A stretch of 64,000 nucleotides of DNA, taken from Escherichia phage PMBT57. Of this stretch, positions 8,701 through 20,209 are shown piece by piece. Within the stretch, counting starts at the first letter, position 1. The number at the start of each line of letters is the position of its first letter. The DNA lies in the sequence record MG770228.1; one strand, written 5' to 3'. The notes under the pieces were generated by a model. The model saw only the letters and a list, made by a program, of their open reading frames with translations. It was not told the DNA's origin and ran no database searches. Position numbers and translations under genes: made by a program.

Positions 8701-8731
8701 AGCCTCCAGGATTAACTGGAGGCTTTTTTAT
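8701..8731 (+). terminator. rho-independent terminator
   Basis: agcctccag - gattaa - ctggaggct followed by TTTTTT; ends the tRNA/ncRNA region. Confidence 0.7.
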
Positions 8732-8752
8732 TTAATTAAATAAGGAAGCAAG

Positions 8753-9124
8753 ATGAACCGTATTACTGAAGAACATATTGATAGCATCATTGAAGGTGTT
8801 TACTACTTCAATATGGCTAAAGCTGTAGAGAATGAAGCAGTTCTGATTCCTGAAGACCATTTAAAAGCATTGAGTACAACTACTGTTTGTGCACTGGTTA
8901 TTTCTAATGGGTTCACTATTACTGGTAAATCTGCTTGTGTTGACCCTAATACCTTCAATGAGGAGTTAGGTAAGAAATATGCTTACGAACAGGCCATTGA
9001 TAAGGTATGGGAATTGGAAGGCTATCTGCTTAAGCAAAACCTGTATGAGAAAGCTCAGAGCCAGGAAATGCTAAAAGGATTCCTGCAAGATGACAACTGT
9101 GAAGGTGGGGGCTGTAAAATCTAA
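8753..9124 (+). CDS. hypothetical protein (123 aa; N4 gp48-like position)
   Basis: Track ORF with upstream AAGGAAG RBS; no motif recognised. Confidence 0.6.
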   Translation: MNRITEEHIDSIIEGVYYFNMAKAVENEAVLIPEDHLKALSTTTVCALVISNGFTITGKSACVDPNTFNEELGKKYAYEQAIDKVWELEGYLLKQNLYEKAQSQEMLKGFLQDDNCEGGGCKI

Positions 9125-9609
9125 TGGAAATTAAAGTTCACTTTACTAATTACATCGGAACCAAATGTGTAAATGGTTTCCCGATGAACAAGGCTGCCTA
9201 CTGCAAACTTCGTGGTTGGGATGTACCTACTAATGAAGACCAGTTAGAAGAGGGTTACTTAGTAGAGTACCCCGATTCTAAACCTAACCATGAACAATTT
9301 CGTGGTTATATTAGCTGGTCACCTAAAGCTGCATTTGAAGAGGCATACTGTGATGTGGACAAAGGCTGCACGTTTGGCCACGCAGTAGAGCTTATGAAAT
9401 CAGGTTTTAGAATGTCCCGTAAGGGCTGGAATGGAAAAGGAATGTATATCACATTGGTATCCGGTGAAAACTGGGCTATGGATAAACATGAAAATACCGT
9501 ATGCATGAAACGGGATTGGCTGGGTATTAAAACCGCTGACAATGAATTTATGCCCTGGGTTCCATCTCAATCAGATGTATTAGCAGAAGATTGGGTACTA
9601 GCTCAGTAA
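9124..9609 (+). CDS. two-domain protein with DUF2829/Tad2-like C-terminal domain (N4 gp49-like position)
   Basis: C-terminal TFGHAVELMKSGFRMSRKGWNGKGMYITLV...MPWVPSQSDVLAEDW matches my recollection of the DUF2829 signature (KGWNGKG ... PW.PSQ.D.LAEDW); the N-terminal ~80 aa is a separate domain; ATG overlaps the upstream stop. Confidence 0.5.
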   Translation: MEIKVHFTNYIGTKCVNGFPMNKAAYCKLRGWDVPTNEDQLEEGYLVEYPDSKPNHEQFRGYISWSPKAAFEEAYCDVDKGCTFGHAVELMKSGFRMSRKGWNGKGMYITLVSGENWAMDKHENTVCMKRDWLGIKTADNEFMPWVPSQSDVLAEDWVLAQ

Positions 9610-9617
9610 GAAATAAA

Positions 9618-9642
9618 GCCCCTCTAGTGAGGGGCATTTTTT
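9618..9642. terminator. bidirectional rho-independent terminator between convergent + and - units
   Basis: gcccctc - tagt - gaggggc flanked by A-run upstream and T-run downstream; lies between + gene end 9609 and - gene end 9644. Confidence 0.75.
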
Positions 9643-9643
9643 A

Positions 9644-12600
9644 TTAGTGGGTAAGGTTGAACCAAGGGTTGAGGGTAGGTGCTCTTAGTCCTTGTCCGAA
9701 GCCTAATGAGTAATCCAGTCTTCCTTCAGCCAGCATGGTTAGCATGTTGTCCTGAATTGGCAGACCTACATTACCAAACATGGCAGGAGCAGGTACTACT
9801 GTAGCAATCAGAGAATGTACTGGGTTGTTTCTAATCATGCTCATAGCAACTTTAATGGAACGAATCTTAAAGTTGTAGAACCACATCAGACCCACGCTTT
9901 CCATATAACCACGGAAACGACCAGGCAATCTGTCATAGTTAACAAACTCTTCAGTTACCTGACCCAATGCTTCAGAAGAGGATTTCTTCTTACGTTTCAC
10001 TAAATCATCATAGATGATGGCTTTAGCAATGAAGTCTGAATACTCTACTGTTTTCTGGATACCCTGGAACAGAGCAGTGTCCTTAGCAATAAGAGCATAA
10101 CGGCCAGCATTACGTACTTTTTCTGGAAGTTTATTAGCAAGTTTTTCCATGTACTCATAAATCTTACCTTCAGCTACTAACAGGTCATCACGACTAATAC
10201 CAGCATCAGCAATAGAAGAGAACTCACCTGCTTCAATCAAAGGCCAGATGCTCATACGACGATGGCTATCAGTAATAGATTGAATCTCGGTTTTAAGTTT
10301 ACGAACCAGATTAGGATTGCCTTCAGCAGCACGTAATTCTGCTTCTGCATCAATCTGACGTAAGCGAGATTTAATGTACTGATTAATCTCTGACGCCTTA
10401 CGAGGAATATTCACAGCAATATCCTTAACAGGAACACCACGTCCAATCATCTGGTAGATGTTAGCAAGGAAGTTAACTGCCGGTACTACAACAGATTTAA
10501 CAACAATTACTGTCTTAGCATCCTTCACCAAGTTCTGAATGGTATTTTCAGCATTCATTACTACATGATATGCCTTATTACCAAATGCACCGAGGAACAT
10601 CTTCTTAACAGTATCAAGGGTGCTAGGTGACCAACGAGAGTTACCAGTCCATACATCACCAATAGATGCAGCACGATAGCCAAGTGCATCATTCAGCATA
10701 TCCCTACGAACCCATAACTCATCCTTACCAAAGAGTTCTTCAGCCTTACGACGAGTCTCAATGTTCATTAGGTTAATTGCATCAGCCAGTACTGGGTCAT
10801 CAATTTTACCTAACAGGTTTACATATTGAGATTTATTAGCACTGGAGTCTTTAATGTCTTTCTCATACATAGCATGTAATTGCTCAATGAGAATGTCATT
10901 AAAACGTTGTGCTTTAGCCTCTTCCACCTGACGACCACGCCATACACCCACCATCTTAGCAAAATGATTGTCTTGGTTTAGATGCTTCAACATATTAGGG
11001 TCAACGGATTGCTCATAAGCAACTACCTGACCTTTGCTGTTATAAATTGGCATCAGTGGTTCACGCCCACGTTCACCTTTAGCCAGAGCTTTGGTAATAC
11101 GCTCTACGGTTGGTTTGTCAGTAATACGACCAGCAACCATAGTACCTAACGTAAAGCCAGTACCAATATCCACGCCACCAGCAGTATTACGAACGTTCTG
11201 AAGAATACCTTGAGAGTATGGAGCACGGGCAGCTACTGGGCTGAAGTAATAACCTTTAGAACCAGTACGGAAACCAGTGCTTCCCTGATAAGTACCAATA
11301 CGAGTAAAAGATTGGCTATTTAACTTAGCAAACTCTTTATCGTCAGCAATAATCAAATTCACACCTTGCTGGTTCTCTACAGGGATATAGCCCTTAAAGT
11401 GATTCAGCAGAGTACGATTATCGCCTTTAGCTTTACGCATCTCTTCAGTACGTTGACCCACCATATAAGCAATGGAGAACTCCATACCTTCCACTTCTGA
11501 TTGAGCCAATTCTGACAAAAGGTCACGGTCAGACTTATTCATCAATTCCAGAGAGTACAAAGTAGTGAGCTTATCAATAGCAGCTACATCTGCCACAGGA
11601 CTATTAGTAATACGTTCACCTAACAAACGACTAATAGCATGGGCATTACGAAGGAGGTTATTACCTACTTCTCCTGTAATCATGTATTGAGCCAGTTGCT
11701 TAGATTTCTTCTGAACCAGATTCCAGTTTCTACCTGCTTGGTTCTGAATCTCTTTTTCCAGAGTAGAGATTTCATCTTTCACTTTCTTGGATGAAGAGAG
11801 TAAATCTCTAATTTCAGCCATGCTCATAGTTTCACGTAGAACAGCTAAATCTGTTTTACCTAAACCAGTATGCATTGCAGACCACTCGGTATCAGTCAAT
11901 TTACGAGAGAACTTACCAGCAATGACTGTAGGTAAATGCTCACGGAATTGTTGACGGTCTTGAGAAATCTGGCTCTTAACCAATTTGATTAAGTCATAGA
12001 CATTGGCATTAGTCTTAGTACGACCAACAATGTCATTAACTAAGTCATGGAAAGGTTGCCATACTTTACCCTGGTTCATAGCAGTCATAACACCCTGAGC
12101 CACTATTTCACCTTGTTTTTCAGATGCAATAGCAGCAGTCAGTTTAGCCAGATGAGCAACACCTTTAGCAGCTACATTAGAAGGGTTAGCAATTACCTTA
12201 TCTGCCTTTTCAATAACAGTTTCAGATAACCGTTCAATGCTATCCGTTACGTACTGATTAGCACGGTCAATGAAGTTACCGGTAGGGGTTGCTACAGCAT
12301 CATAGAAGGACTCTCGTTTCAGAGCAGCAGCCATGATTGTTTCTGACAGAGCATCAATACTATCCTGAACATTAGTAGCCTTCTGGTCACCCGCCATACG
12401 ACGGTTCAGAGATTCCATTACCTGAGTACCTGCATTGGTAAGCAGAGTATCTACATCATTCCCTAATTTCTTATCTGCTTTAGGTACAGGCATTTCTTTA
12501 ATGATTGAACGTAGTTCTTCATTAACCATAGCCAGACCCAGGAATGTAGGTAACAGACTGGTTCTGCCTTTGGCATCTACTTCAACCAGATTAGCACCAG

Positions 12601-15600
12601 AGATAGTGTCATATTTCTGTTGAGCGTAGTAACGGTCAGCAGGGTTAGTACTATCAGGGTCAGCCATGAAATGTTCTACCGTAAGGTGTTTCATTACATG
12701 GGTATAAAGTTCCTGAGCACGAGCCATAGCGTGTGGGTCAATTGCAGCTTCAGTTGCTAATGCAGCAGTAACCATCTGGAATACAGATTGTTCCTGGGCA
12801 GTCATATTGAAGCCACGAGACTGAACATCACGAACTAGTCGAGTAGCACTCATTAATGCATTAGCCACATTGCCACGACGTTCTACTTCTGTAACTGGGT
12901 CAGTACGAAGGTAATCAGTTACCAGTTTATCGAAGGTCTGATTCAACTGAGACAGACGTTCATTATTACCATATGCTTTGCTATGGAACAGTGTGCCATC
13001 TTTAGCTACTGCCTGAGTTGTAGGTTGGCTACGCATCAAAATTGCAGAATTAAACAGCAGATTAGAGAACATATCTTCTCCCAATGCAGGAGCTTGTTTA
13101 CGTCCCCAAATCAATTTCTTAATGGCCTGATAAACATCTTTCACCATTTGAACCAGTGAAGATGTTCTCTTCTGTTTAGCAGCCAGAGCACGGTTAGCTA
13201 ACCCCCAAGCCATAAACTCATTAAGAGCAGCAGCTTTAGAAATAGCTGGGTCAACAAAGCCATTACTCAAATGACCTTCAATAGTTGCAATAGCATCAGC
13301 ATATGCTTCTCTCATTTCTGGAGAATCTTTGGAAATATCCAGAGAACGGAACTGTTCCATCAGACCTTCCAGGTTCTCAATAGCCTGCTTAGATGTAGGG
13401 CTTACTTCATTACCCTGATAGAAGGAATAAACTTCCTCGAAGGTAGAAGCATGAACCAGTTCATGAATGAGGGTTTCCATAGATGGGCTAACCAGATAAA
13501 TGGTCTTATCGTCGAAGTTAGTCCAGCCATAAATATTACCTGCCTGAGCTTCTTCCATTTCCTGAGAAGTCAATTCAGTAACATTCTTCTGACGAGCATA
13601 TTCTGCAACCTGAGTAGGTGTACCGTAGATAATCTTATAGTCTTTAGCTGCCAGTGATTTCTGAATCTCTGCAAGAGTAGCTGCCTGAGTAGATGGCAGA
13701 TTACTAATCTTAGCCAGGTTACGAATAGCAGTAGCAGACAGGATACGAACACCGGATGCCTTATGCTCACAGCCTACCATACCAAAGTCTGGATTCACTG
13801 GTTCTTTTTCAGAAACAGTTTCTTCTTTGACTTCAGCCTTAGCCTTAGCGACTTTTTGTTTACGGGCTTCTAACTCTTCACGGAAAAGTTTATTCAGTTC
13901 ATCAGCCTGTTGTTCAGGAGTCATATTGCTGAGGTCAATCTTACCGTTGTTCTGATAAGGAGCACCTACAGCAGCCATCTGGTCAATGGACAGATTTACC
14001 TTATCCAGTACCTTATGGCGAATATCTACACCCAGTGCAATATTACGTAAGTTACGTTCAATCAGAGATGCAGCATTAGCAATATCATCTACAGTAGCAT
14101 TCTCACGTTGGTCATATTCCAGGGCAGATTTACCAATTGCTTCCAATGCTTCAGGGGACAACTTGCTGAAATCTACATTCTTCATGAACTTAGCATATGA
14201 TTCGTAAACATTCTTAATAGGGTTACCCTGCCAAGAAGTGTAAACAGCTTCATTAGCCTTACGACTAGCATCAGTAATGTCATTCAAACCAATGTTCATA
14301 CCATCAAAGATTTTGAGGGTATTCTTTGGTGCACCTTTCATAGTGGAAAGAGTTTGCATCATCATGCCATCACCAGTACCAATAGTCATAAATGGAATAC
14401 CTGCTACACCAGCCTGTGCTGGGGCATAGATACTCATTGGTACACGCATACGGTCATCAAGGTTAGTAGCTAATACCTGATTTGCTACTTCTGCATTTTC
14501 TGAGCCAGCAATGTAGAAAGTCTGAGAACCAGTCTCAATCATAGGAGCTAAGTTATTCAGAGAAGCCTGAATATCATTAAGTTCTTTCTGAGTAAGAAAA
14601 TCACCTTTCTTCCATGTCGGGTCTTTAGCCTTCTCTGTCAGTTTCTCCTGTACTCGTTGTTTGAACATATCTTCCAGCACTACAGATTGAATCTGAGTAG
14701 CTTTCTGTAATTGTTCAGTGGAGTACACCAGACTTTCACCTACAGTCTGAGTAATACCATTACGTAGTGGTTCTACAAAGAAGTGCAGCATATTTTCCTG
14801 AAGTGCCTTCAGTTGCTCACCCTTAATGGTATAGGTCTTAGGATTGATTTTCCCTTTGGCTCCTGCACCTGTGGATTGTAGTTCCAGTACACCTTTACGT
14901 TTAACAGGAACAGTAGAAGTCAGTGTTTCCATATCTTTCAGGAAACGAGCAAGAAGTTCTTCAGCATGTGCTTCTGAAGCAGCTTGCTTACCAAACATTG
15001 CCATAGCAGCAGAGATGTTTGGGTCTTTAGCACGAGCTTTCAGCACATCAGACATACGCTCATAGATGGCATCAGTAACAGAACTAACCAGCTTACCTGC
15101 AATACCACGAGCACCAGAACCATAGATGGTAATAGTCAGCGGGTTCTTAGCAATACCACGTTTAAGTTCTAAAGCACCATTCTCACCAAGATTAATATCC
15201 GGTAAGAACAAATCCATCAGAGAAAGAAGACTGTCTATCTGGGACTGAATAGGCATATTAGAAGCGTAGTTACTACGTAACTTACCCAACGATTCCATCA
15301 AAGCATTAGTGGATGCTTGATATAAATCATTATTGTCAGCAGTAGAACGATGCTCATTCATGGTCTTATTTGGAGAACCAATGAACAAGCCACCTTTGGC
15401 AATGTTACGAATCCAGTCAGGGGTAAACAGGCCACCTGTCATTAGCATCATGGCATTGATTGGACCATTAGTAACACCATCTGCTTCTACATACAGTGGG
15501 GTTACAAATGCAGATTTATCCTCTGCTACTAAGTAACGGGAATACTCCATAAGAGCCATCAATGCTACGAATGACTTCCTATCTCCTAATGCTGTATTCA

Positions 15601-18600
15601 GAACATCAACTGCATTTTCTGGTAAGGAACCAGTGGTATTAAACTCAACCATCATATCAATGGCTGGTTTCAGATTACCTTCCAGTAATTTAGTTAACTC
15701 ATCTGACATAACCTCACGAGTCATAGTATGGACTTTAATGTCCAATGCCTGAGCCAGACCTAACTGGAATGCAGAGAAGTCTTCATTGTTCTGGTTCGAT
15801 AAATCCAAAGTAGCTTTAGTAGGTAGGATAGCCTCACGAACCAGTTTGGCTGATTGAGGATTGTATTTACCTAACATCTGCATACGACCAACACGGGTCA
15901 TATTGTATGCATAGTGAATAGGCACAGTAGAGATGTCTTCACTCTGTGCTCTTACCTGCTCAATGACGGAGAACAGTTGGTTGTAAGAGTCCTCTACTGA
16001 ACGGTTCTTACCTTCCAGAGATTTAGCATGATTATCATTAAGTAACTCTTTATTCAGAGTACCAGCACCCATCAGTTCGAGAATACGGTCTTTACCTAAC
16101 GTCTCATAGAATTGAACCATTGGAGTGTGTACATAGAACTCTGTAGCCTGTTCTGCTTTCAATGCAGCCTTCTGTTCTGGAGTATTACGAACAGCAGGAT
16201 TACGAAGCTGAGTATTAGCTACAGGAGGAATGTCATTACCAAAGAACATCTTCTCTGTAGGATTTACTAAAACAGCTTCTTCAATAGCAGTAGGGAAGCT
16301 ATTAATTGGGTCGAAGGAATCCAGTTCAGTAATGGTGTACAGACCAATCGTCTTCTTATTATCTGGGTCAATTTCTGACATATCCACGATGTTCTCTACA
16401 ACATCAGTAGACTCTACAAATGCAGCCAGAATTTCAGCAGCCATTGCTGTAGGGATACCTTTGGTATAACCCAATGGAGCATTTGGATTACGAGATAATC
16501 CCCAGTAAGACTCAATTTTCTGAGCCAGGGAACTAACTGCTTCAGTGAGTGTCATACCAGTATCAAATTGCTCTACTAAACCTTCTGGCAGCAAGGCTTG
16601 GTCAATACCAGTAATAGCAGCAACATCTTTTGCATCTTTGATAGCAGTATTGCTGGTAGCAGTAAGTCTCCACTGAAGACCCGCTAATACAGCAGTCTGT
16701 AGCAATTGCTCATTGTACTTAAAGGTATCCCCATCCTGTTCAACGATGTTAAGTAACTTACCGCCTACCCAACGGTTGGCTTCCGTACCCTGAGCAAAAC
16801 GTTTACCAACATCCTTAGTGTTAAGGAACTTAGCCAGACGGGAACGAAGAATATCAGCAATACCTTCCCCATGTTCCATGAGTTCTTTATATCGCTTAAT
16901 AACTTCCCCATTAAAAGCAGGATTAGCAACTTCTTTCTCAGTAAAGAGTTCATAACGAGCACGAGAAGACAGAGCTTGAGCTACCTCTTTTAGAGGTGCT
17001 TCTGAACCAACAGTACGGGATTTCTGTTCTTCCAGTAAGGTAAAGGACAATTTGAAATAGTTCTTAATACCCTCTGCTTTAGAATCAGCAGTACCTACCA
17101 ATGAGGGGTAAACAGCATCGATACCTTCTCTTAATTCTTCTGTAACTGTACGTTCTTTTACAGAAGTTTCAGTTTCTTTAACAGATTCAGTAGGTTGCTC
17201 GATGGTATCCTCATTAGTGAGGGTAGCATCCTGTTTTTCAGACTGGCTCACAGGTTCTTTTATAGCCTGTGGTCTAGACTCTTTAGTAGTAGGTTCTGTT
17301 TTAACAGGTTCACTAACAGGAGTCTTAGTCTGTACAGTAGATGTAACTGGTTCCTGTTTTGTAACAGGAGTTTCTTTAACCTGATTCACGGAGTCAGCTT
17401 TCTGTTGAGAAGAAGCAACGTCTCGATTGCCTTGACGGAATGCCTTGACCACCTCAGCAGCAGGGGCGTTAAGACGTGAATCCAATGGAGTAACTTTTAT
17501 ATGACTGACCTTCAGTTCCGGGTAAGCCGAAGCGAGGGCATTAGCAATATCCGCTACCGTTTTCGCTTCAAGAGCAACTTGCTGGGCAAATTTAACCGAC
17601 TTAGTGTCATAGGGATTGACCCCCAATCCGGTACGGCTACGAACCCATTCTCTGTCAGCAGTAAGAGCTTGGTAGTGGACAGACTTATTCTTATCCGCAT
17701 TCCCCGTAACAAGATGCTCATTCAACGCTCCAACCTTATTCTGCATGTGCTGGGCGAACTGCATAAAGTCGTTCAGGTAAGCGGAGGCCAACTCGAAATT
17801 ACCAGAGTTATACGCAGACCGAATCCTATTCGCATGTTGCAACGCAGAGTATTGTCCTTCCTGAGTTCTGCTCTCATCCGTCTTAATCTGTTTACTCACA
17901 ATGTCTTGAGGACGTAATCCAAGACGGGCAGCTTCTGCATCATATTCCCGTGCCCCCTTCAGGATTGCAGCAGCATTCTGAAGGGCAGCAATTTGGCGAT
18001 TATTCAGTTTAATACGACCATCAGCAGCATGTTTAAGAACAACATTTACAGATTCTGGATTGAGCTTTTCAGGAGCTACTTCAGCAGCTAATGCTACGTT
18101 CTGCATTTCTTGTGGACTGGATTCTTCAGTCACATCCAAAGAACCATTCTGGGCAGATTCATTAATCATTCGATTAATAACATTCAGTGCACCAATTACT
18201 TTTGGTGTGTTCTGAATATTAGCTGTCAGATTTGTATAACGATTGAGTAACTCAATAGCCGGAGAATCTTTAGGAATGCTATCCAGTGCAGCAGGGTCAC
18301 GGTTAATGAATTGCTCAAACTCTGAAACAGCATCATACATATAAGATGCAGCTTCCATCAGTGCTTGAGGATTAGATTCATCTAATGTGTTAACTAGGTC
18401 TGCTAACTTTTGAATAACCTGTACTTGGTCAGTAGAACCAGCTACAGCATTACGAATATGCTCTGGTGCTTCCTGATAATTTTCAGGATTAAAACGAGTA
18501 GCATTCATTAAGTCAGAAACATACTGGTGTGCTGCAACTTTCTGTTCTGGAGTAGCATCAGTTGCTTCAACAGCATCACGAATAGTAACTTCTGCTTCTG

Positions 18601-20146
18601 GTGCTTGAGCCATAGCTTCTTGTGCTGCCTGTGCAACATAGTCATCAGCAACAGGAGATGCTTCTTCATTCTGCTTCATAACCCGTTCACCACGAGCTAC
18701 CAAAGTGTTCTTAATAGGAGAAACAACCTTACCTGCTACACTACCAGCAGCTTTAACACCAGCCATTGTGGTACGCAATACAGGAGCAGTTGCAGCACCT
18801 GCTAAACGAGCAGCACCAGCCGGAGCCTGTACAACACCAGCAGAACCAAAGCCATAAAGAGCACCTAAACCAGCTTGTGTACCGACACCTTTAAGCAGGT
18901 CTTGGTTCTTATCAATGTTTTGTTGCTGTGCAATATTCTGAGCCAGTTGGCCTGTAGCACCCTGAACACCTTCTTCCACTGTTTCACGGGCAAGGTTCAT
19001 ACCTACAGCACCTAAAGAACCAGCACGGAAAGGAGCCATCTCAAAACGAGATACTAGAGGACCAGTTGCAGCAGCAATAGGTAATTGAATAGCAGCAGCA
19101 GTAAGACCAGTTTCAGATGCAGTTTGACGACGAGCCTGTTCAGGGGACATACCATCTTTAATATGTTGCTGATAAACAGGAGACTTCTCTAAGTCTTTAA
19201 GACTCATCTTCATAATTTCGTCAGCAGTTTGTTGGTATGCACCACCAGCTTCCATTGCACCAACACCAATCATACCTGGTGCAGCTCTGCCTACAGTAGA
19301 GGCAATACGAGCCAGTGACTGAGTACCAGTACCTGCATCAATAGCACCAGCCAATGCAGCACTACGAAGAGTATTTACTGGAACAACTGCTTTACCCAGT
19401 AAAGATGCACCCCTTAATACAGGACCAGCACCTAATAGAGAACCTACCCCTTCCGCTAACCCATCAGAAATAATAGAGTCAGTTTGAGCAGCGTTCTCAA
19501 TTGAACCTACAAAATCACGTCCAAATTTAGATAAGGAAGCTACTATGTCATTAGTGCCTTCTTTCTTATCTGTTTGATACTGACGTTCACTCTCTACTTC
19601 ACTCATTAAATTACGAGCAGCAAAGAGCTTACGTTTATCTTGTAATGCTTGGCTTTGGGTAGCATGGACAGCATCATTAAACTTACTCAATTGTTGGGCA
19701 ATGACAGCACCTGCATCATCGTTGAGTAAGCCTGCCCCAAGAGCACCAATGCCCCCAAGGGTATTAACAAAACCAAGACCAACACCAGTAGCAATATCCC
19801 CCAGTTCTTCCCCAGGAGTTCTTGTAGTAACTGAATCATTAAATACCTGGTTCCCTGCATCAGCACGAGCGTTGATAAGTTGTAAGCCTTGCTCAACCCC
19901 ATACTTATTCATGATTTGCATTGGAGTCAGATTCATGAAATCTGATTGCACTGTCCCTGGTTCAAATGCATTAGCCCCAACATTACCAGTACGGGCAGCT
20001 TGCATTTGATAAGCAGCATCAGGAGAAACAAGAGGAGTAGTGACACCTTGTTCAGCTTTCTTCTGGGCGGTTGCAGTAGAGACGTCAACTTGCTTTGCAT
20101 TGGTTACGCTGTCTGCGAACCCAGCCAGTCTATCAAATACTGACAT
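9644..20146 (-). CDS. giant virion-encapsidated RNA polymerase (N4 gp50-like vRNAP, ~3500 aa)
   Basis: Single 10.5-kb ORF; track start gives 3506 aa, but the 7th codon ATG (MSVFDRL) has AGGAAA 7 nt upstream and gives 3500 aa, the size I recall for N4 vRNAP; no other phage family has a single-chain protein of this size at this position. Confidence 0.85.
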   Translation of the reverse strand: MSVFDRLAGFADSVTNAKQVDVSTATAQKKAEQGVTTPLVSPDAAYQMQAARTGNVGANAFEPGTVQSDFMNLTPMQIMNKYGVEQGLQLINARADAGNQVFNDSVTTRTPGEELGDIATGVGLGFVNTLGGIGALGAGLLNDDAGAVIAQQLSKFNDAVHATQSQALQDKRKLFAARNLMSEVESERQYQTDKKEGTNDIVASLSKFGRDFVGSIENAAQTDSIISDGLAEGVGSLLGAGPVLRGASLLGKAVVPVNTLRSAALAGAIDAGTGTQSLARIASTVGRAAPGMIGVGAMEAGGAYQQTADEIMKMSLKDLEKSPVYQQHIKDGMSPEQARRQTASETGLTAAAIQLPIAAATGPLVSRFEMAPFRAGSLGAVGMNLARETVEEGVQGATGQLAQNIAQQQNIDKNQDLLKGVGTQAGLGALYGFGSAGVVQAPAGAARLAGAATAPVLRTTMAGVKAAGSVAGKVVSPIKNTLVARGERVMKQNEEASPVADDYVAQAAQEAMAQAPEAEVTIRDAVEATDATPEQKVAAHQYVSDLMNATRFNPENYQEAPEHIRNAVAGSTDQVQVIQKLADLVNTLDESNPQALMEAASYMYDAVSEFEQFINRDPAALDSIPKDSPAIELLNRYTNLTANIQNTPKVIGALNVINRMINESAQNGSLDVTEESSPQEMQNVALAAEVAPEKLNPESVNVVLKHAADGRIKLNNRQIAALQNAAAILKGAREYDAEAARLGLRPQDIVSKQIKTDESRTQEGQYSALQHANRIRSAYNSGNFELASAYLNDFMQFAQHMQNKVGALNEHLVTGNADKNKSVHYQALTADREWVRSRTGLGVNPYDTKSVKFAQQVALEAKTVADIANALASAYPELKVSHIKVTPLDSRLNAPAAEVVKAFRQGNRDVASSQQKADSVNQVKETPVTKQEPVTSTVQTKTPVSEPVKTEPTTKESRPQAIKEPVSQSEKQDATLTNEDTIEQPTESVKETETSVKERTVTEELREGIDAVYPSLVGTADSKAEGIKNYFKLSFTLLEEQKSRTVGSEAPLKEVAQALSSRARYELFTEKEVANPAFNGEVIKRYKELMEHGEGIADILRSRLAKFLNTKDVGKRFAQGTEANRWVGGKLLNIVEQDGDTFKYNEQLLQTAVLAGLQWRLTATSNTAIKDAKDVAAITGIDQALLPEGLVEQFDTGMTLTEAVSSLAQKIESYWGLSRNPNAPLGYTKGIPTAMAAEILAAFVESTDVVENIVDMSEIDPDNKKTIGLYTITELDSFDPINSFPTAIEEAVLVNPTEKMFFGNDIPPVANTQLRNPAVRNTPEQKAALKAEQATEFYVHTPMVQFYETLGKDRILELMGAGTLNKELLNDNHAKSLEGKNRSVEDSYNQLFSVIEQVRAQSEDISTVPIHYAYNMTRVGRMQMLGKYNPQSAKLVREAILPTKATLDLSNQNNEDFSAFQLGLAQALDIKVHTMTREVMSDELTKLLEGNLKPAIDMMVEFNTTGSLPENAVDVLNTALGDRKSFVALMALMEYSRYLVAEDKSAFVTPLYVEADGVTNGPINAMMLMTGGLFTPDWIRNIAKGGLFIGSPNKTMNEHRSTADNNDLYQASTNALMESLGKLRSNYASNMPIQSQIDSLLSLMDLFLPDINLGENGALELKRGIAKNPLTITIYGSGARGIAGKLVSSVTDAIYERMSDVLKARAKDPNISAAMAMFGKQAASEAHAEELLARFLKDMETLTSTVPVKRKGVLELQSTGAGAKGKINPKTYTIKGEQLKALQENMLHFFVEPLRNGITQTVGESLVYSTEQLQKATQIQSVVLEDMFKQRVQEKLTEKAKDPTWKKGDFLTQKELNDIQASLNNLAPMIETGSQTFYIAGSENAEVANQVLATNLDDRMRVPMSIYAPAQAGVAGIPFMTIGTGDGMMMQTLSTMKGAPKNTLKIFDGMNIGLNDITDASRKANEAVYTSWQGNPIKNVYESYAKFMKNVDFSKLSPEALEAIGKSALEYDQRENATVDDIANAASLIERNLRNIALGVDIRHKVLDKVNLSIDQMAAVGAPYQNNGKIDLSNMTPEQQADELNKLFREELEARKQKVAKAKAEVKEETVSEKEPVNPDFGMVGCEHKASGVRILSATAIRNLAKISNLPSTQAATLAEIQKSLAAKDYKIIYGTPTQVAEYARQKNVTELTSQEMEEAQAGNIYGWTNFDDKTIYLVSPSMETLIHELVHASTFEEVYSFYQGNEVSPTSKQAIENLEGLMEQFRSLDISKDSPEMREAYADAIATIEGHLSNGFVDPAISKAAALNEFMAWGLANRALAAKQKRTSSLVQMVKDVYQAIKKLIWGRKQAPALGEDMFSNLLFNSAILMRSQPTTQAVAKDGTLFHSKAYGNNERLSQLNQTFDKLVTDYLRTDPVTEVERRGNVANALMSATRLVRDVQSRGFNMTAQEQSVFQMVTAALATEAAIDPHAMARAQELYTHVMKHLTVEHFMADPDSTNPADRYYAQQKYDTISGANLVEVDAKGRTSLLPTFLGLAMVNEELRSIIKEMPVPKADKKLGNDVDTLLTNAGTQVMESLNRRMAGDQKATNVQDSIDALSETIMAAALKRESFYDAVATPTGNFIDRANQYVTDSIERLSETVIEKADKVIANPSNVAAKGVAHLAKLTAAIASEKQGEIVAQGVMTAMNQGKVWQPFHDLVNDIVGRTKTNANVYDLIKLVKSQISQDRQQFREHLPTVIAGKFSRKLTDTEWSAMHTGLGKTDLAVLRETMSMAEIRDLLSSSKKVKDEISTLEKEIQNQAGRNWNLVQKKSKQLAQYMITGEVGNNLLRNAHAISRLLGERITNSPVADVAAIDKLTTLYSLELMNKSDRDLLSELAQSEVEGMEFSIAYMVGQRTEEMRKAKGDNRTLLNHFKGYIPVENQQGVNLIIADDKEFAKLNSQSFTRIGTYQGSTGFRTGSKGYYFSPVAARAPYSQGILQNVRNTAGGVDIGTGFTLGTMVAGRITDKPTVERITKALAKGERGREPLMPIYNSKGQVVAYEQSVDPNMLKHLNQDNHFAKMVGVWRGRQVEEAKAQRFNDILIEQLHAMYEKDIKDSSANKSQYVNLLGKIDDPVLADAINLMNIETRRKAEELFGKDELWVRRDMLNDALGYRAASIGDVWTGNSRWSPSTLDTVKKMFLGAFGNKAYHVVMNAENTIQNLVKDAKTVIVVKSVVVPAVNFLANIYQMIGRGVPVKDIAVNIPRKASEINQYIKSRLRQIDAEAELRAAEGNPNLVRKLKTEIQSITDSHRRMSIWPLIEAGEFSSIADAGISRDDLLVAEGKIYEYMEKLANKLPEKVRNAGRYALIAKDTALFQGIQKTVEYSDFIAKAIIYDDLVKRKKKSSSEALGQVTEEFVNYDRLPGRFRGYMESVGLMWFYNFKIRSIKVAMSMIRNNPVHSLIATVVPAPAMFGNVGLPIQDNMLTMLAEGRLDYSLGFGQGLRAPTLNPWFNLTH

Positions 20147-20209
20147 AGTAGGTTTCCTATACAAACTTATATCTATTAGAAATCACACTATACCTAGTGT
20201 AAGGACGAG

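Follow-up and report, generated by a model that had tools for sequence, protein, structure and literature searches.

The locus

The window analysed here is a stretch of 64,000 nucleotides of Escherichia phage PMBT57 (MG770228.1), and the gene under study codes for the orthologue of gp49 of phage N4. The features relevant to its interpretation are the following:

2435..4582, plus strand: gp43-like primase (PriCT_1, DUF3987; Pfam), left boundary of the hotspot
6239..6796, plus strand: gp46 orthologue, RuvC-like, orthologue of Ab09 gp60 (Bes1) (48% identity, E = 4e-54 to Ab09 ORF60)
6799..7242, plus strand: gp47 orthologue, weak homologue of Ab09 gp61 (Bes2) (31% identity, E = 1e-9)
7573-8251: tRNA cluster
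8698..8727, plus strand: terminator-like hairpin, 12-bp stem and T run, closing the tRNA region (also annotated in vB_Eco_AL25)
8753..9124, plus strand: gp48 orthologue, Acb4-family (PF13876) CBASS cyclic-dinucleotide sponge (PF13876, E = 8.4e-34)
9124..9609, plus strand: gp49 orthologue, two-domain, 161 aa (ORF call; orthology to N4 gp49/YP_950527; phrog_872)
9151..9351, plus strand: N-terminal module of gp49, residues ~10-76, motifs YIGTK, RGW, GYLVEY and GYISWSPK
9370..9600, plus strand: Tad2/DUF2829 domain of gp49, residues 83-159, with gcADPR-type pocket (PF11195; Foldseek; pocket mapping)
9618..9635, both strands: bidirectional terminator-like hairpin where the gp49 and vRNAP genes converge (annotated in vB_Eco_AL25)
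9644..20164, minus strand: virion RNA polymerase (vRNAP, gp50), right boundary of the hotspot (3506-aa ORF; annotated vRNAP in N4 and AL25)

The open reading frame of gp49 spans exactly the positions given in a preliminary description of this DNA, and both motifs quoted there, KGWNGKG (within RKGWNGKGMY) and MPWVPSQSDVLAEDWVLAQ, are found in its translation. The region shares 96% DNA identity over 1 kb with that of N4 gp49, such that orthology, and with it the proposed gp49 slot beside the vRNAP gene, is borne out by position as well as by sequence; the protein matches phrog_872 over its full length (E = 1.4e-66). The gene is the last one on the plus strand ahead of the convergent vRNAP ORF, and its ATG overlaps the TAA stop of gp48 (TAATG), with the hairpin at 8698-8727 lying upstream of the pair. 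The description had also placed gp49 next to the tRNA cluster; the two are not directly adjacent, being separated by about 450 nt devoid of called features, the terminator and gp48. An Rfam scan of 7200-9700 returned four tRNAs and otherwise sub-threshold noise only. Recent horizontal acquisition of gp48-gp49 was considered and rejected, GC content showing no anomaly across the pair. The succession of an Acb4 gene and a gene for an N-domain-Tad2 protein recurs in Gamaleyavirus and in an unrelated 90-kb contig. PF13876 corresponds to Acb4 (PMC11722364), Bes1 ("broad evasion of signalling 1") and Bes2 were defined in a recent preprint (10.64898/2026.06.04.730250), and the same work reported Tad2, Acb4 and Sequestin in the primase-to-vRNAP hotspot of N4-related phages.

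The Tad2 domain

The assignment of the C-terminal domain of gp49 to DUF2829/Tad2, made earlier from sequence motifs, is upheld by profile search, predicted fold and ligand-pocket residues alike. Neither of the two outcomes named in the earlier description as refuting it, lack of a significant profile match or a predicted fold without the ligand pocket, was observed. The Pfam family PF11195 ("Tad2-like") matches residues 83-159 with E = 1.1e-23; the score is 83.9 bits, the cut-off being 25, and the alignment takes in profile positions 2-72 of 73, all of which is far above chance. With gp49 as query, phmmer against the PDB returned Tad2 structures only, led by ModTad2 (9eib, 3.6e-16) and SPO1 Tad2 (8sme, 3.9e-15). 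The AlphaFold2 (AF2) model of the monomer (pLDDT 84.5) retrieved 8smf, 8smg, 8wje, 9eib and 8v3e in Foldseek at E values from 1.6e-7 to 7.5e-7, with target-normalised TM scores of 0.68-0.85 on structures of the SPO1 Tad2/ModTad2 type, and all 24 matches at E ≤ 1e-3 were Tad2 structures. The domain displays the expected fold, i.e. helix α1 and, after it, an antiparallel sheet whose loops contain short helices.

In SPO1 Tad2, gcADPR or its associated waters are touched by W25, N26, I63, T65, D67, H71, W73, S76, T78 and D79. Eight of these ten residues are identical in gp49 (W102, N103, I135, T137, D139, W145, S148, D151); the other two are T78, conservatively replaced by S150, and the water-coordinating H71, replaced by M143, where ModTad2 has Ala and most family members have Val. 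Of the eight identical residues, all but the one at position 135 recur in 79 or more of 86 family members; at position 135, 70 of the 86 have Met and 13 have Ile. In HgmTad2, mutation of W21/N22 and of S90/T92/D93 abolishes gcADPR binding; the corresponding residues of gp49 are W102/N103 and S148/S150/D151. The insertion after β2 comprises 19 aa in gp49 (residues 113-131), 24 aa in SPO1 Tad2 and about 41 aa in HgmTad2, where it forms the dinucleotide pocket; a dual binder of gcADPR and cyclic dinucleotides of the HgmTad2 type was rejected on this difference in length.

Thus, gp49 is a Tad2-type protein and a predicted sponge for bacterial immune alarm molecules. The Tad2 assignment is sound and not new, and neither is the sponge candidacy, since RefSeq already names N4 gp49 "DUF2829 domain-containing protein" and the preprint cited above places Tad2 in the hotspot. 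In the literature searched, no published binding or phenotype tests of N4 gp49 or of any N-domain-Tad2 protein were found. The ligands of Tad2 homologues are known to vary, including 3'cADPR, His-ADPR, N7-cADPR, cUMP/cCMP and cyclic dinucleotides, and, of the sponge homologues assayed, roughly one in four inhibited none of seven defence systems.

The N-terminal module

Residues 1-81 constitute a separate domain, in agreement with the earlier proposal of a distinct domain fused to Tad2: it amounts to about 75 aa, has a confidently predicted fold of its own (β-α-β-β-α; pLDDT 92-96 over residues 21-70), and found no Pfam match, even at E ≤ 10, and no sequence match in the PDB. In the monomer models residues 1-10 are poorly placed (pLDDT 36-71), and within the domain confidence is lowest for the conserved β1 stretch YIGTK. 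No likeness of its fold to any nucleotide-binding protein was found, and its net charge is negative, 13 D/E outnumbering 9 K/R in a visual count. It is under about the same constraint as the Tad2 domain (mean pairwise identity 0.62 versus 0.59), with 25 positions at least 90% conserved irrespective of the partner, many of them K, R, E, Y, W, S or N. SWSP and GWNG keep a fixed distance of 36-37 residues in every one of the 77 sequences, out of 86, that carry both motifs. The two-domain architecture is common to at least 120 protein clusters, across more than 92% of the length.

Far beyond gp49, an exhaustive HMMER search, used in place of a word-indexed one that had yielded 7 proteins, located the N-domain in at least 1,264 protein clusters, and 124 INPHARED records contain it, mainly of phages of Escherichia, Vibrio, Klebsiella and Pseudomonas. 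In the best 150 carriers, a diverse set, the Pfam partners belong to four families only, Sequestin (56), Tad2 (40), Acb4 (30) and the Acb2/Tad1 hairpin (3); triple Acb4-N-Sequestin arrangements exist as well. The N-domain, which bears no family name and has no solved relative in the libraries searched, is not peculiar to gp49: this very common module keeps company with sponge domains, and its fusion partners in public data are almost exclusively of this kind. It also occurs as a stand-alone ORF, to which a purely dimerising role is a poor fit; the same can be said of the polar and aromatic conserved residues that are absent from the RyR-Tad copy described below.

A distant homologue, at about 30% identity, is the N-terminal part of RyR-Tad, gp68 of Pectobacterium phage vB_PatP_CB1, which adds a fifth partner family. 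A profile built from the N-domain matches residues 6-65 of CB1 gp68 at E = 1e-6, with no false positives among 388 background ORF fragments; BLASTP gave 5e-5 and hhalign a probability of 96%, and Foldseek against BFVD found the gp68-like RyR protein of Yersinia phage TG1 with probability 1.0. In the crystal of RyR-Tad, gp68_N (residues 1-86) forms a β1-swapped dimer (10.64898/2026.06.04.730250). R30, W32, E38, E48, D51, N55 and K68, fully or almost fully conserved across the main N-domain family, are absent from the RyR-Tad copy.

Several known families were considered for the N-domain and set aside. Acb4 or Sequestin had been suspected from a published "Acb4-Sequestin fusion" and from phrog_9467, which ties the N-domain to a gp49_66 domain. 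Acb4 (PF13876) was rejected for want of a Pfam match at E ≤ 10 over residues 1-81 and on the different fold predicted for the N-domain; Sequestin (PF21825), likewise without a Pfam match, is all-helical as opposed to the predicted β-α-β-β-α arrangement, and no N-module is present in the Acb4-Sequestin protein Ab09 gp59. TadIV-1 is a two-helix dimer, and Lockin was undetected in model phages, whereas the N-domain is present in N4. Acb5 is set apart by host range only, its INPHARED members belonging to Streptomyces, Mycobacterium, Bacillus and Haloarcula, without overlap with the hosts of the N-domain. Tad3-6 are set apart indirectly, in that the authors who place Tad3 in the hotspot call gp68_N a "fold with unknown function".

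Proposed mechanism and alternative readings

The best explanation, which we regard as probable, is that gp49 is a Tad2 sponge for TIR-derived ADPR signals, with the N-module as a sponge-specific dimerisation brace, in a layered anti-signalling island. The Tad2 domain would most likely form the usual homotetramer with pockets between protomers, and the tetramer would sequester a TIR-derived ADP-ribose signal, 3'cADPR/1''-3' gcADPR, possibly also His-ADPR or N7-cADPR, such that the Thoeris effector would stay unactivated. By homology to the N-domain of RyR-Tad, the N-module most likely pairs protomers via a swapped β1 strand, of which the low-confidence placement of β1 in the monomer models is an indirect hint, and would act as a brace through a short linker of fixed length to Tad2 helix α1. 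This helix is the tetramer interface in Tad2, and a bulky domain joined straight onto it might change the assembly of gp49; the earlier suggestion that the fusion may alter oligomerisation agrees with the strand-swapped dimer of the homologous domain. The genes gp48 and gp49 would be co-transcribed and are probably translationally coupled; lying downstream of the Bes1- and Bes2-like genes, they may together with these make up the layered island beside vRNAP in N4-like phages.

A different role of the N-module, possible and in our judgement rather doubtful, would make gp49 a dual inhibitor: the module itself would be a new anti-signalling family, either a sponge or a small enzyme degrading a signal other than 3'cADPR, so that gp49 would be active against two signals and the gp48-gp49 operon against three, and Pfam-based fusion screens would have overlooked it because no Pfam model exists. 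Fusion of one sponge to another is known (Acb4-Tad2, Acb4-Sequestin), and the same logic led to the discovery of Sequestin; the exclusively sponge-type Pfam partners of the best 150 carriers, the fifth partner RyR-Tad, the Acb4-N-Sequestin triples and the partner-independent conservation of 25 positions, at a constraint similar to that of the Tad2 domain, all point this way. The sole copy tested, gp68_N, was inactive; as it lacks R30, W32, E38, E48, D51 and N55, its inactivity says little about the main N-domain family. Against a second activity argue the missing fold likeness to nucleotide-binding proteins and the net negative charge of the domain, whereas known sponge pockets are positively charged.

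As to the ligand, the Tad2 domain might have drifted to one outside Thoeris, e.g. cCMP/cUMP of Pycsar or a CBASS dinucleotide, in which case gp49 would be a sponge and not an anti-Thoeris protein. We consider this improbable: some homologues are known to bind cUMP/cCMP or cyclic dinucleotides, and ModTad2, by a small margin the closest solved relative, does not inhibit type I Thoeris, but the canonical ADPR-type pocket is almost wholly conserved in gp49, the insertion is shorter than that of SPO1 Tad2, which binds no cyclic dinucleotides, and the extra pockets of ModTad2 and HgmTad2 supplement the ADPR-type pocket rather than replacing it. Hardly credible, and already largely refuted, is an anti-CRISPR of the AcrIIA7 type, which is suggested by the similarity of gp49 to AcrIIA7/HgmTad2 (8kbi, E ≈ 1e-10 to 1e-11) and by the annotation of the Mimir124, Huey and Louie homologues as "anti-CRISPR protein". 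Type II-A CRISPR-Cas9 is not known from E. coli. Furthermore, Li et al. failed to reproduce, in vitro or in vivo, anti-Cas9 activity of HgmTad2/AcrIIA7 or of other Tad2 homologues.

Significance

N4 is a classic model phage, and its island is open to genetic study in E. coli K-12; gp48-gp49 and the Bes1- and Bes2-like genes appear to form a compact island countering several signalling defences. The N-module is the more valuable lead. Should it prove to be a universal brace, it would reveal how stable assemblies of several sponges are put together by phages; should it bind a ligand, it would represent a new sponge family, usable as bait for an unidentified bacterial immune signal, as was the case with Tad1 and ModTad2. 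In addition, its sequence is a simple tag by which phage genomes can be searched for anti-signalling genes.

Comparison with known systems

With Tad2 of SPO1 (gp34.65; 8SME/8SMF/8SMG) and ModTad2 (9EIB), gp49 has in common the HMM family, the predicted fold, about 40% identity over the C-terminal 80 aa, and the WN motif and W..S.[ST]D pocket residues. In contrast to the characterised Tad2 proteins (SPO1, Mod, Hgm, Spt; sizes checked), which are single-domain or crystallised chains of about 88-104 aa, gp49 possesses the additional N-terminal domain of about 75 aa.

RyR-Tad, likewise encoded in the hotspot of an N4-like phage, has the same two-part layout: its C-terminal part is a gcADPR sponge (predicted in gp49), preceded by an N-terminal module without assigned function. 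Y10, K14, P20, M21, G44-Y45-L46-V47, Y49, Y62, S64-W65-S66-P67 and F71 are common to both N-terminal domains, whereas gp68_N is devoid of the RGW motif, E38, E48, D51 and N55 of the main family. The sponge domain of RyR-Tad adopts the all-helical RyR Repeat12 fold instead of that of Tad2, and its gene adjoins the primase gene rather than that of vRNAP.

The modular joining of such domains in one polypeptide or operon is familiar from the sponge-sponge fusions Acb4-Tad2 (Pasteurella phage Pm86), Tad2-Sequestin and Acb4-Sequestin (YH6, Ab09 gp59). Unlike in Pm86, the Acb4 (gp48) and Tad2 (gp49) of N4 are separate proteins from overlapping genes, and the domain fused to Tad2 in gp49 is neither Acb4 nor Sequestin. 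Along these lines, genes 006/007 of Clostridium phage vB_CpeS-CP51, a phage of a Gram-positive host, contain the same three modules in neighbouring genes, but in permuted order, with a Tad2 protein (68 aa) preceding an N-domain-Acb4 fusion (154 aa), and at a locus among head genes.

Identity of gp49

The 161-aa ORF at 9124..9609 on the + strand, gp49, carries both RKGWNGKGMY and MPWVPSQSDVLAEDWVLAQ in its translation. Its residues 83-159 match Pfam PF11195 ('Thoeris anti-defense 2-like domain', once DUF2829) over nearly the full profile (E=1.1e-23, 83.9 bits; curated cut-off 25 bits), and residues 1-81 are without a match in Pfam (even at E<=10), NCBIfam or PDB sequences; the preliminary description, which had recognized a Tad2 domain fused to a distinct N-terminal domain of ~80 aa, is thereby borne out. 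In a phmmer comparison with all PDB chains, gp49 matched Tad2-family proteins only, namely ModTad2 (9eib, 8v3e), SPO1 Tad2 (8sme, 8wje), HgmTad2/AcrIIA7 and SptTad2. The sequence belongs to an Enquatrovirus and is, over 8700-9700, 98.5% identical to vB_Eco_SPSP and vB_Eco_AL25, the latter record being collinear with it coordinate for coordinate, and 96% identical to phage N4, whose orthologue gp49 (YP_950527) bears the RefSeq name 'DUF2829 domain-containing protein'.

Homologues of gp49 in Mimir124 (PQ310662), Huey (PQ850609) and Louie (PQ850616) are labelled 'anti-CRISPR protein'. This is likely a misannotation, probably inherited from AcrIIA7; Li et al. could not reproduce anti-Cas9 activity for that protein (bioRxiv 10.1101/2023.11.15.567273). 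An anti-CRISPR role of gp49 is considered very unlikely, the label being an AcrIIA7 legacy contradicted by later experiments.

Fold and ligand pocket of the Tad2 domain

An HMM search against DUF2829 and a structure prediction compared with Tad2 had been proposed as checks of the assignment; the former was significant, as detailed for PF11195, and the latter agrees with it. The AF2 model of gp49, calculated with 86 full-length homologues, has a mean pLDDT of 84.5, and all 24 of its Foldseek matches in the PDB at E<=1e-3 are Tad2 structures, with target-normalized TM-scores of 0.68-0.85 to SPO1 Tad2 and ModTad2. In SPO1 Tad2, 1''-3' gcADPR or its waters are contacted by ten residues, eight of which are identical in gp49 (W25, N26, I63, T65, D67, W73, S76 and D79, corresponding to W102, N103, I135, T137, D139, W145, S148 and D151) and one of which is changed conservatively (T78 to S150). 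The sole real change, H71 to M143, concerns a water-coordinating position, occupied by Ala in ModTad2. Of the eight identical positions, all but 135 are conserved in at least 79 of the 86 family members; at position 135, Met predominates (70/86), with Ile in 13/86. Binding of gcADPR by HgmTad2 is abolished by the substitutions W21A/N22A and S90A/T92A/D93A (bioRxiv 10.1101/2023.11.15.567273), which map to W102/N103 and S148/S150/D151.

The cyclic-dinucleotide pocket of HgmTad2 is formed by its 41-aa β2-β3 insertion (bioRxiv 10.1101/2023.11.15.567273). The corresponding insertion comprises 24 aa in SPO1 Tad2 and only 19 aa in gp49, which makes an additional pocket like that of HgmTad2 improbable. 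With nearly equal bit scores of gp49 against ModTad2 (His-ADPR, 64.6) and SPO1 Tad2 (3'cADPR, 61.6), the sequence cannot discriminate among ADPR-type signals as ligand. Other members of the Tad2 family bind N7-cADPR or cUMP/cCMP, and some inhibited none of seven systems tested.

The gp48-gp49 pair and its genomic setting

Upstream of gp49, its start overlapping the gp48 stop in TAATG, lies gp48 (123 aa), which matches PF13876 'Phage_gp49_66' at E=8.4e-34; this Pfam family corresponds to Acb4, whose members are sponges for CBASS cyclic dinucleotides (PMC11722364). The pair is unremarkable in GC content and lies between two terminator-like hairpins (8698-8727 and 9618-9635). An 'anti-signalling hotspot' has been described in N4-related phages between the primase and vRNAP (virion RNA polymerase) genes, with Tad2, Tad3, Acb4, Sequestin, Bes1 and Bes2 as reported contents (10.64898/2026.06.04.730250). 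The layout of the window fits this hotspot:

2435-4582: gp43-like primase, left boundary of the hotspot
after the primase: AAA_24 protein, then a gene annotated SSB in the AL25 record
6239-6796: gp46, RuvC-like, 48% identity to Ab09 gp60/Bes1 (E=4e-54), a clear orthologue
6799-7242: gp47, 31% identity to Ab09 gp61/Bes2 (E=1e-9), a weak homologue
7573-8727: stretch holding four tRNAs
8753..9124, + strand: gp48, Acb4
9124..9609, + strand: gp49, N-domain-Tad2
9644-20164, - strand: vRNAP, 3506-aa ORF, convergent to gp49

The slot just before the vRNAP gene, to which gp49 had been assigned, is indeed occupied by it as the last + strand gene. Judged by homology, four anti-signalling genes appear to be present: Bes1, Bes2, Acb4 and Tad2. 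The pair of Acb4 followed by N-domain-Tad2 recurs in Gamaleyavirus ECBP1, in which Acb4 is only 45% and the gp49 N-domain 86% identical to the counterpart here, and on an unrelated contig of 90 kb that carries an SU10-type portal gene; it is absent from one other phage contig examined.

Several details of the region may be added. The tRNAs are Asn, Ser, Thr and Pro (ARAGORN and Rfam), and the fifth, 'tRNA-Undet' at 7990-8055 in the AL25 record, is supported by neither method. The stretch 8252-8697 holds no listed ORF >38 aa, tRNA or Rfam match and is closed by the first, strong hairpin. A minor ambiguity concerns the vRNAP start, placed mechanically at a TTG at 20164 (3506 aa) versus 20146 in the AL25 record. 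N4-type Acb4 proteins share a Cys-rich C-terminal tail outside the PF13876 core (DDNCEGGGCKI in gp48, NNTCDGGGCTI in ECBP1_0056), kept despite 45% overall identity and possibly a metal site or disulphide. Finally, PF13876 is named 'N4 Gp49/Sf6 gene 66', and N4 GenBank/RefSeq entries give this family as gp48 and the DUF2829 protein as gp49; since gp48 matches PF13876, Pfam's 'N4 Gp49' denotes GenBank gp48, an offset by which annotation transfer can be misled.

The N-terminal module

The N-module (residues 1-81, 9124-9366) is strongly conserved. Across the 86 full-length homologues, its K14, Y26, R30, P35, G44, E48, Y49, Y62, W65 and P67 are invariant, and its mean pairwise identity, 0.62, lies between those of the Tad2 domain (0.59) and the Tad2 core (0.71). 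Both SWSP and GWNG occur in 77 of these sequences, with 36-37 residues from the first motif to the second in every case. When 1.84 billion cluster representatives were searched exhaustively with HMMER, the N-domain was found in 1,264 proteins at E<=1e-3 (564 at E<=1e-10) of 88-658 aa, in N-terminal, internal or C-terminal position. Isolated phages account for 124 INPHARED records, with Escherichia, Vibrio, Klebsiella, Pseudomonas, Erwinia, Rhizobium, Acinetobacter, Clostridium, Aeromonas and others as hosts. Among the best 150 of the 1,264 representatives, a scan revealed only four Pfam partner families, and architectures were assigned with our own HMMs.

Partners and architectures of the N-domain, best 150 of 1,264 (N, N-domain; T, Tad2; S, Sequestin; A, Acb4; x, unassigned segment >=45 aa)
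Partner PF21825 Sequestin: 56
Partner PF11195 Tad2: 40
Partner PF13876 Acb4: 30
Partner PF24729 Acb2/Tad1 hairpin: 3
N-T: 30
N-S: 30
N-x: 27
A-N-S: 13
N alone: 8
N-A: 4
A-N: 3
Rarer architectures, N-T-S among them: remainder

By eye, many x segments resemble degenerate Tad2 domains or helical hairpins like that of Acb2. Two representatives, P0188 (373 aa) and P0219 (658 aa), carry large regions of ~200 and ~490 aa ahead of the N-domain-Tad2 unit (start MNKQEVIT...LRGLREE.NDIDV...), which have no Pfam match and may be a further partner domain.

A fifth partner is RyR-Tad, gp68 of Pectobacterium phage CB1 (10.64898/2026.06.04.730250). Foldseek against BFVD matched the N-domain fold to viral proteins of Tad2-like type and to one Yersinia phage TG1 protein named 'Ryanodine receptor Ryr domain-containing protein', which is also the one cited in the GenBank note of CB1 gp68. 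The N-domain HMM matches gp68 residues 6-65 (E=1e-6; no false positives among 388 ORF fragments), and BLASTP gives 5e-5; by these matches the N-terminal part, gp68_N, is therefore placed in the N-domain family as a divergent member. It keeps Y10, K14, P20, M21, GYLV, Y49, Y62, SWSP and F71, which are probably fold residues, and lacks I11-G12-T13, R30, W32 (RGW motif), E38, E48, D51, N55 and K68, all of which the main family conserves completely or almost completely. The RyR-Tad crystal is a domain-swapped dimer with β1 inserted in the partner, and against type I Thoeris gp68_N (residues 1-86) was inactive, the C-domain alone being sufficient (10.64898/2026.06.04.730250).

Proposed function

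We consider it reasonably probable that gp49 is a Tad2 sponge joined to a strand-swapped brace. The Tad2 domain would sequester a TIR-derived ADPR-type signal, the N-module would act as a dimerizing brace found with sponges, and gp49 would be co-expressed with gp48, the Acb4 sponge, within the anti-signalling island of N4. A ligand or target of the N-module's own, the main rival reading, is rather unlikely. In its favour are the rule that 'sponges fuse to sponges', the stand-alone copies, a conservation independent of the partner, and the extra invariant polar and aromatic residues of the main family, which gp68_N, the sole tested copy and an inactive one, misses; the negative result with gp68_N and the lack of a modelled pocket in the N-module speak against it. 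Possibly gp68_N is a degenerate copy, which limits what its reported inactivity says about the family.

Relation to known systems

Public annotation already covers the Tad2 assignment of N4 gp49, and the hotspot is already published; the interest of gp49 lies mainly in the N-module. This domain had been seen once before, in RyR-Tad, and was left there as unknown (10.64898/2026.06.04.730250). In the literature we found neither the N-domain-Tad2 architecture itself described nor a near-exclusive link with five sponge families; the Pfam-based fusion screen behind the Sequestin discovery could not detect the N-domain because it has no Pfam model. Within the best 150 of 1,264 representatives plus RyR-Tad, the module appears near-exclusive to Tad2, Sequestin, Acb4, the Acb2/Tad1 hairpin and RyR-Tad (the comparison with Acb5, Lockin and Tad3-8 being indirect).

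Acb4 and Sequestin, the latter an inhibitor of type I Thoeris, form a single fusion protein in Ab09 (10.64898/2026.06.04.730250). In N4-type phages, a Tad2 gene follows Acb4 instead. Clostridium phage vB_CpeS-CP51, a Gram-positive siphovirus, encodes a stand-alone 68-aa Tad2 directly followed by an N-domain-Acb4 fusion (genes 006/007, L007:1295-1965); these are the three modules of the N4 gp48-gp49 pair in permuted form, set among head genes.
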